Shown here: piece after piece, positions 16,140 through 21,117 of the stretch | Position numbering within the stretch: position 1 is the first letter of the stretch | Layout: each line of letters starts with the position of its first letter | Virus record (IMG/VR): IMGVR_UViG_2526164690_000025 | Direction: 5' to 3' (one strand) | Source: a virus | Taxonomy: Duplodnaviria > Heunggongvirae > Uroviricota > Caudoviricetes | DNA length: 64,000 nt | The notes under the pieces: model-generated | Databases searched by the model: none | What the model was told of the DNA's origin: nothing | Seen by the model: only the letters and a program-made list of their open reading frames with translations | Program-made: the position numbers and the translations under genes

Positions 16140-16361
16140 ATGGTTAATGCCAATCCTTGCGCACGCCAAGAATTCATCTGGCGTTTCTATTCCTGTAAAA
16201 AACACCACTATCACTTCGTTATCGCAGCAACAGAAGACGAAGCACGCTCTCAATTGCCTGATGGCCCCTGCATTTTCACTGCCCGTTTTTCAACTAACTC
16301 GCGCAATTCACTTAGTTACTGGAACCTCCCCTTCTCTGCCGACGTTCAGGGGGTTTTATGA
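16140..16361 (+). CDS. icd: Icd-like small protein (73 aa)
   Basis: 73-codon ORF with SD gagg 8 nt upstream, immediately preceding and overlapping the antirepressor gene, as in P1 immI. Confidence 0.6.
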   Translation: MVNANPCARQEFIWRFYSCKKHHYHFVIAATEDEARSQLPDGPCIFTARFSTNSRNSLSYWNLPFSADVQGVL

Positions 16362-17394
16362 AAAACCTCTCGTCACCCGTAATGAAATAGCCGAAGCGAT
16401 CGCTTTGCATACAACCTGTATGCCGACACGGGAGATCCCCGGCGCAATTGCCAACTATTTCATGATAACCAGGCGTTTTTATACCCGAACAGATAAGGCT
16501 GTGATCAACAGGCTACTGATAGCCGAGATCAGGGATTATTTGATTGAACAAGGACGTCTACGTTACGCAACGGTGGCAGCAGAAATGAGAAAGGAGGCGC
16601 GCAGAATGACCGGTAATAATTTGAATGTTGAAAAACCAGCACCTGTTGCTTTAGCTACGCCATCACCAACTGTGAATGTTATCTCCAACACTGGAGACAC
16701 AATCGACAGCCAGACACTGTTAAAGATGGTCAATGAAGCGCGTAAGTTATGTGGGGAACCAGAGGTTCGGAACAACAAATTCATCGAAAAAATACTCGAT
16801 GAGCTTGATGGTGAGCACTACACAAAAAGTGTAGTGGAAAAAATGAACAAAACATCAATGCTTGTCATAACCATGACCTACAAACAAGCCCTGCGAGTCG
16901 CCGCGCGCGAATCAAAAGCTGTCCGCCGTTCGCTGATCGACAAACTGGAAGAATTGCAGCAGGCAAACTCCCCTACCCCATCGATCCCCCAAACATTACC
17001 AGAAGCCCTACGCCTGGCTGCCGAGTTGGCAGAACAGAAAATGCATCTGGAACAACAGCTGGTGGCCGCAGCACCTAAAGTCGATTTTGCCGACCGGGTA
17101 TCAGTGGCTAATGGAATCCTGATCGGTAACTTTGCAAAGGTCGTTGGACTTAAGCAAAACGCCCTTTTCTCATGGTTGCGCCAGAACGGCATTCTCATGG
17201 CTTTTGGTGCGCGCAAAAACGTACCGCGCCAACAGTACATCAACGCCGGGTATTTCACGGTGAAAGAAGTGGTGCTGGATGATGAAAATGGCTACCAGAT
17301 ACGGCTGACGCCCCAATTAACGGGTAAAGGCCAGCAGTGGTTAACTCGCAAGCTACTTGATGCTGGTTTGTTAAAACCAGTAGCAATAGGTTAA
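16357..17394 (+). CDS. ant: antirepressor (Ant-like, KilAC-type C-terminal domain), copy 1; start codon unresolved
   Basis: Homologous to 44048-45082 over the whole length; in this copy the ATG overlapping the icd stop (16358) is out of frame by 1 nt; the frame stays open upstream to ATG 16147. Confidence 0.6.
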   Translation, partial: YEKPLVTRNEIAEAIALHTTCMPTREIPGAIANYFMITRRFYTRTDKAVINRLLIAEIRDYLIEQGRLRYATVAAEMRKEARRMTGNNLNVEKPAPVALATPSPTVNVISNTGDTIDSQTLLKMVNEARKLCGEPEVRNNKFIEKILDELDGEHYTKSVVEKMNKTSMLVITMTYKQALRVAARESKAVRRSLIDKLEELQQANSPTPSIPQTLPEALRLAAELAEQKMHLEQQLVAAAPKVDFADRVSVANGILIGNFAKVVGLKQNALFSWLRQNGILMAFGARKNVPRQQYINAGYFTVKEVVLDDENGYQIRLTPQLTGKGQQWLTRKLLDAGLLKPVAIG

Positions 17395-17558: not shown

Positions 17559-18359
17559 ATGCAACAAACATTCAATGCGGATATGAATATATCAAACCTT
17601 CATCAAAATGTCGATCCTTCAACCACTCTGCCTGTTATTTGTGGTGTTGAAATTACGACCGACCGCGCTGGCCGTTACAACCTTAATGCTCTACACAGAG
17701 CGAGCGGACTCGGTGCCCATAAAGCGCCAGCTCAATGGCTAAGAACGCTGTCAGCCAAACAGCTCATCGAAGAGCTTGAAAAAGAAACTATGCAGAATTG
17801 CATAGTTTCGTTCGAAGGCCGTGGCGGCGGCACTTTTGCCCATGAATTGCTCGCAGTGGAGTACGCAGGTTGGATTTCTCCCGCGTTTCGGCTGAAGGTA
17901 AACCAGACATTTATCGACTATCGAGCTGGAAGATTACAACCTGCTATTCCGAAGAGCCTCCCAGAAGCTCTCCGTTTGGCTGCCGACCTGGCAGAGCAAA
18001 AGCAACGGCTGGAGCAAAAAATGCTGATGGATGCACCTAAAGTCGAATTCGCCGAACGCGTTGCTACCGCCAGCGGGGTTCTAATCGGCAACTATGCCAA
18101 AGTGCTCGGCCTGGGCCAAAACTATCTCTTCACCTGGTTGCGTGATAACGGAATTCTGATCGCAACCGGTGAACGCAGGAACGTCCCCAAACAAGAATAC
18201 ATATCCCGTGGGTATTTCACCCTTAAAGAAACCGTGATCGATACAAGCAATGGAAGCAGGATTTCTTTCACGACTCGTATAACCGGCAAAGGTCAGCAGT
18301 GGCTGATGAAGCGATTGCTTGATGCTGGTGTGCTGGTACCTGTCGCGGCAGCGCGCTAA
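17559..18359 (+). CDS. kilA: KilA-N domain protein with antirepressor-type C-terminal domain
   Basis: 266 aa; C-terminal region PEALRLAADLAEQK...APKVEFAERV...GNYAKVLGL shared with both Ant copies. Confidence 0.6.
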   Translation: MQQTFNADMNISNLHQNVDPSTTLPVICGVEITTDRAGRYNLNALHRASGLGAHKAPAQWLRTLSAKQLIEELEKETMQNCIVSFEGRGGGTFAHELLAVEYAGWISPAFRLKVNQTFIDYRAGRLQPAIPKSLPEALRLAADLAEQKQRLEQKMLMDAPKVEFAERVATASGVLIGNYAKVLGLGQNYLFTWLRDNGILIATGERRNVPKQEYISRGYFTLKETVIDTSNGSRISFTTRITGKGQQWLMKRLLDAGVLVPVAAAR

Positions 18360-18388: not shown

Positions 18389-18967
18389 ATGCTGGCTAAA
18401 GTCACTTTCCTGAGCTGTATAACGATGAGCGATTTTACTTTTTCTGGCTATGAATTGGCCTGCTTTGTAACACACTCCGGTCTATCCCGTAGCGCCGGGC
18501 ATATCCTGTCGCAATGTGCAAATCTCGCGGCAACAACCAGTGAATACTTCATTCACAAGCCTCACCGCCTGATCGCGGCAGAAACTGGTTATAGCCAATC
18601 AACCGTCGTTCGTGCATTCCGTGAAGCTGTAAACAAAGGAATCCTGTCAGTAGAGATTGTTATCGGCGATCACCGTGAACGTCGCGCTAACCTGTACCGG
18701 TTTACACCATCCTTTTTGGCCTTCGCACAACAAGCAAAAAATGCGCTGATTGAAAGCAAATTAAAGATCTCTTCAGCGGCAACCAAGGTTAAAGCTGTTC
18801 TCGCTAAGACATTGGCTTTATTTAATTTTTTATCCACACCCCCATGTCAAAATGATACCCCCTCCCCCTGTCAGGATGACGTGGCAATAAAGAATAAGAA
18901 GTCACAATTTAAAAAACAAAAAGATCAGTTTCCGGCGCTGCCGGAACGACCAAACTCAAAAAATTGA
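18389..18967 (+). CDS. HTH DNA-binding protein, possible lytic-replication RepL-like
   Basis: 192-aa ORF with helix-turn-helix-like segment (TGYSQSTVVRAFREAVNKGIL); position after kilA as repL in P1. Confidence 0.35.
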   Translation: MLAKVTFLSCITMSDFTFSGYELACFVTHSGLSRSAGHILSQCANLAATTSEYFIHKPHRLIAAETGYSQSTVVRAFREAVNKGILSVEIVIGDHRERRANLYRFTPSFLAFAQQAKNALIESKLKISSAATKVKAVLAKTLALFNFLSTPPCQNDTPSPCQDDVAIKNKKSQFKKQKDQFPALPERPNSKN

Positions 18968-19233
18968 CTTCATGGATCGCTGAGGCAAAAGCAAAGGCTG
19001 ACAATCTGCGGTTATCCAAAAAACGCGCTCAAAAACATGAGTTCAAGCAGAAAGTAGAGGCGGCAGCGCGGAAATATGCTTACCTGAAGAACAAGCGTTC
19101 TCCTGATATTGGCGGGGTATCAAACTTCGATAATCTGCCGCATTGCATGACGGTAAACGAAGCTCTTAATGCGGTTTTAGCCAAAAATAAAGATAACGAA
19201 CAATGGGGTATACCGGCGGGATTCAGAGGGTAA
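18964..19233 (+). CDS. hypothetical protein
   Basis: 89-aa ORF, non-ATG start implied. Confidence 0.3.
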   Translation: MTSWIAEAKAKADNLRLSKKRAQKHEFKQKVEAAARKYAYLKNKRSPDIGGVSNFDNLPHCMTVNEALNAVLAKNKDNEQWGIPAGFRG

Positions 19234-19401
19234 TGAATTGTTCTAATTATAACCATGCATACTTTCAACGCCTCTAGTTTGCCATGAGGCAAACTCATAG
19301 GCGTCCTGGTAAGAGGGCACTGTTGCCAAAACTGGACGTCCCATTATTGCAATTAATAAACAACTAACGGACAATTCTACCTAACAATAAGTGGAGTTAA
19401 C

Positions 19402-20106
19402 ATGTTGAACCGAAGAACATTTAATGTATTCTGCGATGAATCCTGTCACCTACTAAATGATCATAATAAAGTCATGGTATTGGGTGCGCTTTGGTGCCCT
19501 GGCACTATCACAAAAAAAATTGCTAGAGACATCAAGGAATTAAAATTAAAACACAATCTAAAACCTGATTTCGAAATCAAGTGGACTAAAGTATCTGCGT
19601 CCAAGGTTGAATTTTACTTAGATGTCGTAGATTACTTCTTCAGCAACCCAGCATTGCGCTTTAGAGGTGTTGTTGTTCCTGATAAAGAGCAACTGGACCA
19701 TGCTCGATTCCATCAAGATCATAATACTTTCTATTATAAGATGTTTTTTTATGTCTTAAAAAACATAATAGAAAGTAACAACACATACAATATCTACCTA
19801 GATATAAAAGATACTTTAGGCATTGAAAAAATTGAGAAATTAAGAGGAGTTCTTCACAATGATCGCTATGATTACAATCATGAGTCGATAAACAGAATTC
19901 AACATATACGATCTCATGAAGTGCAACAATTGCAGCTAACGGATCTTTTCATTGGTGCGTTAGGCTACGTTCATCGAGGAATGAATAGCAACGCGGGAAA
20001 AATCCAAGTCATAAACAGGATAAAATCACATACAAACAGGGATTTACTAAAAAGCACTCTTCCAACAGAAAGTAAATTTAATATTTTCGTGTGGGAGGCT
20101 CGCTGA
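19402..20106 (+). CDS. DUF3800-like protein
   Basis: 234 aa; N-terminal FNVFCDES motif typical of DUF3800; AT-rich codon usage distinct from flanks. Confidence 0.5.
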   Translation: MLNRRTFNVFCDESCHLLNDHNKVMVLGALWCPGTITKKIARDIKELKLKHNLKPDFEIKWTKVSASKVEFYLDVVDYFFSNPALRFRGVVVPDKEQLDHARFHQDHNTFYYKMFFYVLKNIIESNNTYNIYLDIKDTLGIEKIEKLRGVLHNDRYDYNHESINRIQHIRSHEVQQLQLTDLFIGALGYVHRGMNSNAGKIQVINRIKSHTNRDLLKSTLPTESKFNIFVWEAR

Positions 20107-20570
20107 TGCTTCAAATGCCAGATTTATTGTACTTCAATGGAAGTTGGCAAGAGTATATAGACGATGTATATTATGTTGTCAGAGAAGACATTTTAATCTC
20201 TAATATAACGTTTAAGGGTCTCCCTGTTCGGTTACGTTATTCACCGGAATATGATGGGAAAGAGTTCGGATTTTGGCATTTAGTATCAGAGGGAAAAATA
20301 GAAGAAGAACGAATACCTGATCTTGAACGGTGTAAGCGGATCCGCTGGATCGCGCATATGATAAGGAATTATAACCATTCCGATATATCATGTTGGTCTG
20401 AAAGACGAGGACCAACTGAAGAATGGGTAATCTGGAACGAGTGTGAAAACTACGTTGTTGTGCTATCCGCACGTAGAGACTATTGGCTTCTTAAAACAGC
20501 CTATGTTGTAACCTATAACAGTAAAATCAGAACACTCAAACAAAGCAGAAAAAGAGCGCTTGGGACATAA
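20106..20570 (+). CDS. hypothetical protein, translationally coupled partner of DUF3800 gene
   Basis: ATG overlaps upstream stop (TGATG), SD gggagg 8 nt upstream; about 154 aa; same AT-rich island. Confidence 0.5.
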   Translation: MLQMPDLLYFNGSWQEYIDDVYYVVREDILISNITFKGLPVRLRYSPEYDGKEFGFWHLVSEGKIEEERIPDLERCKRIRWIAHMIRNYNHSDISCWSERRGPTEEWVIWNECENYVVVLSARRDYWLLKTAYVVTYNSKIRTLKQSRKRALGT

Positions 20571-20577
20571 AAAAGCT

Positions 20578-20609
20578 GAACCCGACACATATTGCTATGT
20601 ATCGGGTTC
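20578..20609 (+). terminator. imperfect stem-loop after DUF3800 operon
   Basis: gaacccgacacata-ttgc-tatgtatcgggttc. Confidence 0.35.
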
Positions 20610-20736
20610 GATCGCTCTTTCTACACATGGTAGATGAGTAAGGCAAATCTAACCGATCTACTTTAGCTTTTCAATAGCTAGCTATAACTTTCCGCACATA
20701 TTCTTCTGATAATTCCAGTATGGCTGTTGGGTTTTC

Positions 20737-21033
20737 TTATGCTTTTCTGCGCAGAGGTGCACATTTATTCAGCAATAATAAATGTAATTCTTTGTTATTC
20801 CTAAGTATTTCGACACACCAATATCGTAACGTGTTCACTTCAAGTGTAGCCAGCACCTTATGTCGAAGTCCTCCCTCCCCTGCACATAACGATGACCGAC
20901 ATTCTGCTAAGGCACATAACCATGTATTGGCATCATAGAGAATCCAATAATGCTCCTCTGAAATAGTTTTGCATCCAATTATTTCGAATCTTCGTTCTAT
21001 CGTTTCAGGAGAGTATGAAAAATCAATTTCCAT
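20737..21033 (-). CDS. hypothetical small protein (AT-rich island)
   Basis: 98-aa ORF convergent with DUF3800 operon; uncertain. Confidence 0.25.
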   Translation of the reverse strand: MEIDFSYSPETIERRFEIIGCKTISEEHYWILYDANTWLCALAECRSSLCAGEGGLRHKVLATLEVNTLRYWCVEILRNNKELHLLLLNKCAPLRRKA

Positions 21034-21074
21034 AATATGCTCAAAATTTCGCTATACCAGCATAATTTAAGCAC

Positions 21075-21096
21075 AAAAAAAGCTCCCGCAGGAGCT
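21075..21096 (-). terminator. rho-independent terminator for minus-strand structural gene
   Basis: agctcc-cgca-ggagct with A6 on plus strand upstream (U-tract on minus). Confidence 0.5.
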
Positions 21097-21117
21097 TTAA
21101 AATACAAGGGATGACTC

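Follow-up and report, generated by a model that had tools for sequence, protein, structure and literature searches.

The stretch of DNA analysed here (the window, 64,000 nt) comes from a P1-like phage-plasmid, and our subject is an island of accessory cargo at 19248–21074, in a slot between repL and bplB, which holds rlfA, rlfB, a small RNA (sRNA) gene and pmgF. rlfA (19402–20106, plus strand) is an open reading frame (ORF) for a 234-aa DUF3800 protein, a predicted nuclease with an RNase H2-like fold. rlfB (20106–20570, plus strand) encodes a 154-aa partner that is translationally coupled to it, the ATG lying, as a first-pass annotation of the sequence had already described, within a TGATG stop/start overlap, with GGGAGG 8 nt upstream. 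The sRNA gene, of about 70 nt (20570–20640, minus strand), is convergent on rlfB and matches a covariance model at 64.7 bits (E 5e-15). The rlfA–rlfB pair itself is not a new find, since it has long been annotated in P1 and is already a PADLOC-listed candidate. What is new here is the anatomy of a three-part unit and the distribution of its RNA, which is linked to every rlfAB copy examined and stands alone in many phages.

The rlfA–rlfB pair

Both proteins, which the first-pass annotation could not place in a characterised system, are the annotated RlfA and RlfB of P1 (RapA and RapB of P7), with 96–99% identity, and the third ORF is PmgF. The P1 and P7 records name the genes rlfA/rapA, rlfB/rapB and pmgF/upf52.1 and carry the notes 'possibly associated with lytic replication' and 'putative morphogenetic function'. 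The DUF3800-type character read earlier from the FNVFCDES motif of the 234-aa protein is borne out by Pfam DUF3800 (PF12686; residues 8–189 score 54.1 bits, with a cut-off of 21 and E 3.6e-14). RlfA has more than 5000 homologues, many of them 52–66% identical across phyla, and its invariant residues in a 33-sequence alignment include D12, E13, D134, D137, Q178 and D181. Both DUF3800 motifs, as quoted in PMC7736814, are present and invariant in these 33 sequences, namely the N-terminal DE (D12-E13) and the C-terminal QxxD (Q178-x-x-D181). The predicted fold is RNase H2-like and resembles PIWI and RuvC as well; RNase HII structures are only 7–13% identical to it, and RlfA is assigned by Pfam to DUF3800 only, not to an RNase HII family, and by NCBIfam to nothing. 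Because this fold is combined with an intact D-E-D-D site, RlfA is predicted to be an active nuclease. No MID/PAZ-like guide-binding domain was found within its 234 residues.

RlfB matches no Pfam, NCBIfam or functional PHROG family. A full HMMER scan gave a family of 1776 representative clusters, nearly all of 150–190 aa and without fusions, and the longer members carry no additional Pfam domain. It evolves faster than RlfA, with 35–45% identity as against 45–55% at the same loci, and keeps F56-W57-H58, R69, D72, R75, R78 and W81. Fold prediction, which had been proposed as a check on both proteins, was informative for RlfA and much less so for RlfB: the fold of the latter is closest to RelE/colicin-D-type RNases, but the resemblance is weak and not significant by Foldseek against the PDB, and for this reason we do not claim RlfB as an RNase. 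Likewise, no RelE/ParE or colicin D/BECR toxin profile of Pfam, NCBIfam or PHROGs matches RlfB, and what lies upstream of it is a 234-aa predicted enzyme and no DNA-binding antitoxin, so that a protein antitoxin or immunity partner is not apparent.

No housekeeping or phage morphogenesis family of Pfam or NCBIfam claims either protein, NCBIfam gives zero matches for the products of rlfA, rlfB and pmgF, and the only PHROGs labels are 'replication protein' and 'unknown'. The PADLOC search suggested by the first-pass annotation was more productive, since RlfA and RlfB match the candidate defence models PDC-M04A (PDLC04353, E 1.2e-95) and PDC-M04B (PDLC04357, E 2.5e-51), with the A and B genes adjacent, co-oriented and overlapping in their stop and start codons. 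Pfam and PADLOC gave no ToxN-like match to the window proteins and no ABC-ATPase plus anticodon-nuclease domains of the PrrC/RloC type.

The pair is conserved as a unit. A survey of species-representative genomes, from which the best 80 of 194 loci were used, places it in Proteobacteria, Patescibacteria, Chloroflexota, Planctomycetota, Bacteroidota, Verrucomicrobiota and others. In 78 of these 80 loci rlfB follows rlfA immediately and on the same strand, the remaining two being cut by contig ends, and the same order is found in all 32 viral-contig loci.

A small RNA gene downstream of rlfB

Because Weinberg et al. (2017) reported eleven structured RNA motifs near DUF3800 genes (PMC5737381), the region 3′ of rlfB was compared across loci. 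The 250 nt downstream of rlfB gave 1125 similar pairs, as against 47 for the upstream regions, and the element they share is a 20–35-nt stretch, 92–100% identical between phyla, with a 24-nt core that hardly differs between Enterobacterales, Patescibacteria, Chloroflexota and Bacteroidota. The same layout recurs on the strand opposite rlfB: a TTGACA/TATAAT-like promoter, (A/G)NCUCAUCUACCAUGUGUAGAAGGAG, a short linker (mostly UAACGA) and a terminator, which is a GC-rich hairpin that varies in sequence and leads into a U-run. In the window, the 5′ hairpin CUC-A-UCUAC-CAUGU-GUAGA-AA-GAG, the linker and a rho-independent terminator follow one another within 20570–20640 on the minus strand. The terminator hairpin identified by the terminator scan (20578–20609, minus strand) has 14 pairs followed by AGCTTTTTTA and lies 8 nt past the rlfB stop, and the promoter scan places a sigma-70 promoter, TTGAAA-17-TAGATT, at 20646–20674 (minus strand), with a −10 box that ends 7 nt before CUCAUC. 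This register (−10 ending 7–9 nt before CUCAUC) is shared by promoters at 46 of 75 distinct loci, where shuffles lead one to expect 3.7.

The RNA structure is supported by covariation. RNAalifold, applied to 52 distinct sequences, returned the terminator and a 5′ hairpin in which an internal loop separates helices of 3 and 5 bp, the latter capped by the loop CAUGU. In these sequences 98.2% of cells are paired, compared with 39–51% after sliding of the partners, the observed values were never reached in 500 shuffles, and 11 of 17 pairs show two-sided, compensatory changes. Within the 5′ hairpin, U-A becomes C-G at two positions (in 5 and 8 sequences) and C-G becomes U-A at a third; a fourth is A-U in 30 sequences and G-U in 21, the latter being a pair on the minus strand only (A-C on the plus strand). 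The terminator helix differs in sequence between loci and keeps its pairing, and the folding z-score of the window sRNA is −6.3.

Searches were made with nhmmer and then with a covariance model built from the alignment. The model gives exactly one match in the 64-kb window and one match just 3′ of rlfB in every rlfAB locus with downstream sequence, including loci that nhmmer had missed, and zero matches in four P1-like loci that have no rlfAB. Among the matches listed, rlfB is convergent on the sRNA in 76 of 81 motif-seeded loci and co-directional with it in 5, which argues that the sRNA is its own transcription unit. Three loci (L110, L113 and L115) have the element inverted with respect to rlfB, with a TTGACA/TATACT promoter of its own. 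We conclude that the sRNA is very probably a functional third component of the rlfAB module.

Some loci depart from this form. Three loci from alphaproteobacterial metagenome-assembled genomes have weaker matches 3′ of rlfB (16.5–30.5 bits), with two in tandem in L024 and L032 and one in L042, which suggests, from the sequences, a divergent or duplicated form of the sRNA. In the Marinobacter/Pseudidiomarina loci L040, L047, L060, L065, L072 and L077, about 12 nt (ACUUACGCC...GGCUG) are inserted into the apical loop of the 5′ hairpin, so that the loop sequence is not universally fixed.

Rfam 15 contains no family for this sRNA: stretches of 156–161 nt from the window and from L046 found none, even with the laxest filters and E values up to 10, and the covariance models of DUF3800-I, DUF3800-IX, drum and skipping-rope do not match it. 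Two weak matches, to ctRNA_pGA1 (23.5 bits against a gathering score of 45) and to rnk-leader, were rejected as generic hairpin-plus-terminator similarity. The sRNA may coincide with one of the Weinberg motifs DUF3800-II to XI that lie outside Rfam. The P1 and P7 records have no annotation at its position, and inspection by eye for tRNA anticodon-arm mimicry, for a small ORF within the sRNA and for antisense pairing to conserved rlfA or rlfB codons yielded nothing convincing.

Copies of the small RNA without rlfAB

Scans seeded on the 24-nt core alone recovered at least 120 metagenome loci and 60 viral contigs. Whether rlfAB stands beside the RNA was called by RlfA and RlfB profile searches, with at least 700 nt of room required on the 3′ side of the RNA. 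Among the matches listed, 99 metagenome loci have such room, of which 74 carry rlfAB beside the RNA and 25 the RNA alone; on viral contigs the proportions are reversed, with rlfAB at 7 and the RNA alone at 47 of the 54 loci with room. The viral copies are full-length by the covariance model in 59 of 60 contigs, the last one being truncated where its contig ends, and 96% of cells are paired in this independently seeded set, in keeping with the structure. Tandem sRNA pairs about 62 nt apart occur on seven phage contigs (L250, L254, L265, L282, L290, L295 and L243).

The neighbours of the solo copies include no recurrent protein family and no DUF3800 gene. However, 12 of the 47 solo viral copies have a phage tRNA gene within 400 nt, always on the same strand, and several share the order tRNA-Ser / RNA / tRNA-Gly, as opposed to none of 91 rlfAB-linked copies with a tRNA gene nearby. 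The motif is found in the Bacillus phages phi3T (complete genome), Goe11-14, SPbetaL5/L8 and BUCT083, and in Vibrio phages 1.084.O (partial record) and 1.121.O, Geobacillus phage PT9.1 and Mammaliicoccus phage phi6255, always in unannotated intergenic DNA. An RlfA homologue of any kind is encoded in only 18 of 50,697 phage records, none of which belongs to these named phages. In Vibrio phage 1.084.O, a gene annotated with COG0617 (L300, 5384–6039), the COG of the tRNA nucleotidyltransferase or CCA-adding enzyme, lies about 2.3 kb from the solo RNA copy, a hint of a tRNA-related neighbourhood.

Defence genes around chromosomal rlfAB copies

Neighbouring genes were counted by clustering and confirmed with Pfam, as tblastn with single HsdR, HsdS and HsdM representatives undercounts restriction–modification (R-M) neighbours. 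An HsdR-type gene lies just 3′ of the pair in 35 of 78 genome loci (about 45%), and HsdS and HsdM just 5′ of it in 28 of 78, all on the same strand as the pair. For the nearest neighbours, Pfam identifies HsdS in 24 of 71 upstream genes, and further upstream neighbours include T5orf172, KwaB, SIR2 and DNA methylase, while those downstream include HsdR, PLD-SNF2 helicases, Mrr, TIR, SymE and GmrSD. Type I R-M is absent at the window slot, where the flanking genes are repL and bplB.

The variable slot of the P1-like backbone

The segment 18300–22200 of the window aligns over its full length, with 96–98% identity, to P1, P7, JL22 and vB_EcoM-813R1, and the island is 100% identical in E. coli plasmids of about 92–99 kb, such as NZ_AP018809.1. 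It has kilA (17559–18359) and repL on its left and the tail-tube/sheath operon on its right, which agrees with the earlier placement of the island between early genes and a late structural operon. The AT-richness noticed in the first pass is equally clear: the slot has a GC content of 0.375 (rlfA 0.352, rlfB 0.389, pmgF 0.384), as against 0.473 for the whole window and 0.467 and 0.498 for the flanks, and it is the lowest-GC stretch of 1827 nt in the 64 kb (all windows: mean 0.473, sd 0.025; 0.2% as low).

That this is a variable slot is evident from pairwise alignment with island-less P1-like phages, in which backbone homology ends at 19247 and restarts at 21075/21076, and only the flanks are covered in 13 of 21 matching phage records. 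Among 5426 complete E. coli genomes, the bplB–pmgG backbone block is present in 708, of which 121 (about 17%) have the island, and 123 of 128 places of the island in complete E. coli genomes are on plasmids. Other P1-like elements carry other cargo in the equivalent locus: a Hok/Gef toxin gene (hok/mok) in MH422554, an Ail/Lom protein and two unknown ORFs in SJ46, IS605 orfB and an unknown ORF in RCS47, and a single unknown ORF in 673R5, PADLOC and Pfam finding nothing in this cargo beyond Hok and Ail/Lom. Replacement of rlfA-rlfB-pmgF in pSvP1 and pTZ20_1P was described by Venturini et al. (PMC6906374).

The left breakpoint falls inside a C1 repressor operator, ATTGTTCTAATTATAAC (19237–19253, plus strand; Orlf or Op55 in P1), whose annotation in P1 and P7 places it immediately 3′ of the repL stop. 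The cargo junction of every slot variant falls within this operator after an 11-base core, ATTG(C/T)TCTAAT being kept and the remainder differing. Elements with other cargo retain these 11 bases too, and the operator core is therefore part of the backbone and not of the cargo. The right breakpoint is the terminator of the tail-tube (bplB) operon (21079–21098, minus strand; terminator scan), which is conserved in all slot variants. Within the island, a predicted sigma-70 promoter for rlfA (PrlfA, TTGCAA-17-GACAAT, 19347–19375, plus strand) is identical to the promoter predicted in the P1 record, a prediction in both cases.

Other features of the locus

The 98-aa convergent ORF of the first-pass annotation does exist and is pmgF (20737–21033, minus strand), but it is a passenger of the slot outside the conserved module, since it is found in P1/P7-like loci only among the 80 genome and 32 viral loci compared. 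It is non-essential in P1 (PMC10695390). The N-terminal ~65 aa of PmgF resemble proteins of 171–210 aa encoded at the same position beside bplB in SJ46, RCS47 and 673R5 (L085 2034–2666, L086 2601–3197 and L084 1411–1926), and by sequence PmgF looks like a shortened relative of that slot gene. Neither PmgF nor these relatives match any Pfam or PADLOC family.

The C1 operator of the window has one C-to-T change relative to P1. Between it and the predicted rlfA promoter lies a perfect 7-bp inverted repeat, GTTTGCC-ATGA-GGCAAAC (19270–19287), without a U-run. The repL gene of the window (18389–19233) is split into a 192-aa and an 89-aa ORF because an A-run at about 18905–18918 is one base short (P1 CACAAGTTAAAAAAAC, window CACAATTTAAAAAAC); either the lytic-replication gene is frameshifted or the homopolymer was misread in sequencing. 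Upstream of kilA, the ORF at 16147–17394 has 415 aa, as compared with P1 ant1 of 1044 bp (about 347 aa), which suggests a different antirepressor allele or start site.

Discussion

Based on the above data, we propose that the island is P1-like accessory cargo with a mobile three-component conflict module, composed of RlfA, RlfB and the sRNA and neutralised by RNA in the manner of a toxin–antitoxin (TA) or abortive-infection system, a proposal whose chances we put at slightly better than even. That rlfAB and the sRNA form a conflict module of some kind, serving defence, abortive infection or addiction, is likely; that the sRNA acts in it as an inhibitor or antitoxin is a more tentative assignment, to which we give somewhat less than an even chance. 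A conflict module is favoured over a function in replication or morphogenesis because of the foreign composition of the island, its presence or absence at a hotspot that can hold hok/mok instead, its dispensability for lytic growth, its spread among R-M and other defence genes, and the combination of two predicted nucleic-acid enzymes with a dedicated RNA. The strict linkage, the near-invariant sRNA and the high conservation of RlfA suggest a direct RNA–protein interaction. In this respect, DUF3800 proteins are generally tied to non-coding nucleic acids, as illustrated by the Weinberg motifs (PMC5737381) and by retron msDNA (PMC7736814). The first-pass annotation, which had proposed a defence or toxin module, was thus right in direction, as the foreign cargo, the PDC-M04 models and the R-M and defence neighbours indicate; however, it mis-delimited the unit and missed the sRNA, and the function we assign is still read from context.

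In the mechanism that we envisage, the sRNA would be abundant and probably short-lived, transcribed from its own strong promoter, and would hold the nuclease or nucleases inactive. Infection or loss of the element would lower or displace the sRNA, whereupon the nucleases would attack nucleic acids and the growth of the phage or of the host would stop. Phages with the sRNA alone would then possess a decoy that keeps the module off. An excess of solo phage copies would be expected if the sRNA silences the module and phages borrow it. There is precedent for such borrowing: phage ΦTE escapes ToxIN by carrying pseudo-ToxI repeats.

Several points weigh against this proposal. The sRNA could equally be a cofactor, a guide or a substrate, and it may have an unrelated primary function in phages. 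Neither protein is like a known type III toxin, and the sRNA forms no repeat array. PADLOC PDC entries are candidates only, and our search of the literature found neither the name PDC-M04 nor any experiment on rlfA–rlfB or PDC-M04. In addition, the P1 pair lies downstream of the C1 operator, and its early induction in lytic infection has been reported, which would fit a function in the phage cycle equally well. However, the operator core belongs to the backbone and rlfA has a separate predicted promoter, which tempers this last argument.

The module is best understood by comparison with known systems. The window pair matches the A and B models of PDC-M04 in the expected adjacent, co-oriented order, but the PADLOC candidate consists of two proteins defined by protein profiles, to which the rlfAB locus adds the sRNA. 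Like the type III TA systems ToxIN, CptIN and TenpIN, rlfAB joins a nuclease, here a predicted one, to a dedicated structured RNA and would defend by abortive infection once the RNA runs out, and the phage-borne antitoxin RNA known in general as pseudo-ToxI is mirrored by the solo sRNA copies. The type III systems differ in having one protein, ToxN/AbiQ-like, where rlfAB has two and none of that kind, and in an antitoxin made of tandem repeats upstream of the toxin, whereas the rlfAB RNA is a single unit with its own promoter, downstream and convergent. Among retrons, viewed as tripartite TA systems, those of type VII have DUF3800 as the effector and resemble the module in uniting an RNase H-like DUF3800 protein with a second protein and a non-coding nucleic acid dedicated to it (PMC7736814). 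Unlike them, rlfAB has no reverse transcriptase and no msr/msd, and the DEDD and QxxD of RlfA contrast with DEED and a QxxD motif without its Q in the DUF3800 proteins of retrons. The Weinberg motifs DUF3800-I to XI are also structured RNAs near DUF3800 genes, often ended by a terminator and in either orientation (PMC5737381); the rlfAB sRNA differs from them in lying outside Rfam 15, which holds at least DUF3800-I and DUF3800-IX, and in occurring also in phages without a DUF3800 gene.

Relatives of rlfAB share the placement hsdM-hsdS-[pair]-hsdR with PrrC (PMC12707154) and TgvAB (PMC11411939), defence genes embedded in type I R-M operons. No kinship in sequence or domains connects rlfAB with PrrC/RloC or TgvAB, and the window module stands alone, without type I R-M. 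Finally, hok/sok, as an alternative cargo of the same P1 slot, is similarly RNA-controlled and combines addiction with phage exclusion, but its toxin is a membrane peptide as opposed to soluble predicted nucleases, and the conserved part of the rlfAB sRNA is not antisense to coding sequence.

Other explanations of the locus have to be weighed against the RNA-neutralised module. The original P1 annotation implies a link to replication, in which RlfA, as an RNase H-like enzyme, would process a transcript or R-loop at oriL inside repL and RlfB would assist lytic replication. The position of the pair directly after repL/oriL and behind the C1 operator, the RNase H2-like fold of RlfA and a preprint that groups rlfA/B with the early replication genes in P1vir transcriptomes all agree with this, yet the pair is missing from about 83% of the P1-like backbones of complete E. 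coli genomes, the examined elements (L083–L086) keep repL, knock-down of rlfA and rlfB by CRISPR interference leaves plaque formation unchanged (PMC10695390), the operator core is backbone, and the pair and its RNA occur in chromosomes of many phyla within type I R-M operons, without repL. A role in replication is therefore very unlikely. The dispensability of the pair for lytic growth also counts against a function in RNA processing or host takeover, by which two nucleases would remodel host or phage RNA early in P1 growth, like RegB of T4, with the sRNA as their regulator; the pair is found mostly in bacterial, chromosomal and defence contexts rather than in phages, only 18 of 50,697 phage records having any RlfA homologue, and we rate this idea as improbable. 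It is in turn hard to see the conserved element 3′ of rlfB as a plus-strand 3′ untranslated region, a terminator element or a DNA site instead of an RNA gene. Its place directly after the rlfB stop would suit such a role, and its hairpin could terminate rlfAB transcription. However, it is the minus strand that carries the U-run and the promoter, the G-U pairs at one stem position (21 of 52 sequences) would be A-C on the plus strand, the element is inverted with its own promoter in three loci, and full-length copies exist without rlfAB, so that this reading is scarcely tenable.

Pure plasmid addiction is closer to our proposal. In this case a labile RNA antitoxin and post-segregational killing would stabilise the P1 plasmid prophage without any anti-phage role, as would befit a low-copy plasmid whose sister elements fill the same slot with hok/mok, and an RNA-plus-nuclease architecture suits such killing. 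The mechanism overlaps with that of the RNA-neutralised module and differs in the selected benefit only, but addiction accounts neither for the embedding in chromosomal type I R-M operons nor for the RNA that stands alone in tRNA arrays and in the genomes of lytic-type phages, and by itself it appears unlikely. The same holds, to a similar degree, for the sRNA as a cofactor or guide, either used by RlfA, whose fold is also PIWI- and RuvC-like, to recognise a nucleic-acid target or processed by RlfB into an active signal. An invariant sequence offers no programmable specificity, RlfA at 234 aa has no MID/PAZ-like guide-binding domain, and if the sRNA activated a host nuclease as its cofactor, it would be difficult to see why phages carry solo copies, except as decoys.

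In a wider and more speculative perspective, which we regard as rather less probable than not, rlfAB would represent an undescribed class of RNA-controlled two-nuclease immune or toxin modules that is distributed across bacterial phyla and would often add a second layer to type I R-M operons. Phages, among them SPbeta/phi3T-like Bacillus and large Vibrio phages, would have captured its RNA repeatedly as an anti-defence decoy, often placing it within tRNA arrays, and the complete system would be present in P1. If so, P1, a textbook genome, carries a complete system and an unannotated sRNA gene. Less would follow if the sRNA turned out to be an already published DUF3800 motif without a phenotype, and more if it is an antitoxin copied by phages. 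As an off-switch, the sRNA would define a directly testable pair of defence and counter-defence in E. coli/P1 and B. subtilis/phi3T, the most tractable of hosts, and would give a function to at least one DUF3800–RNA association, a class unexplained since 2017. It would also account for the presence of some non-tRNA genes in phage tRNA clusters, and would explain why P1-like phage-plasmids swap rlfAB cargo with hok/mok at one hotspot.

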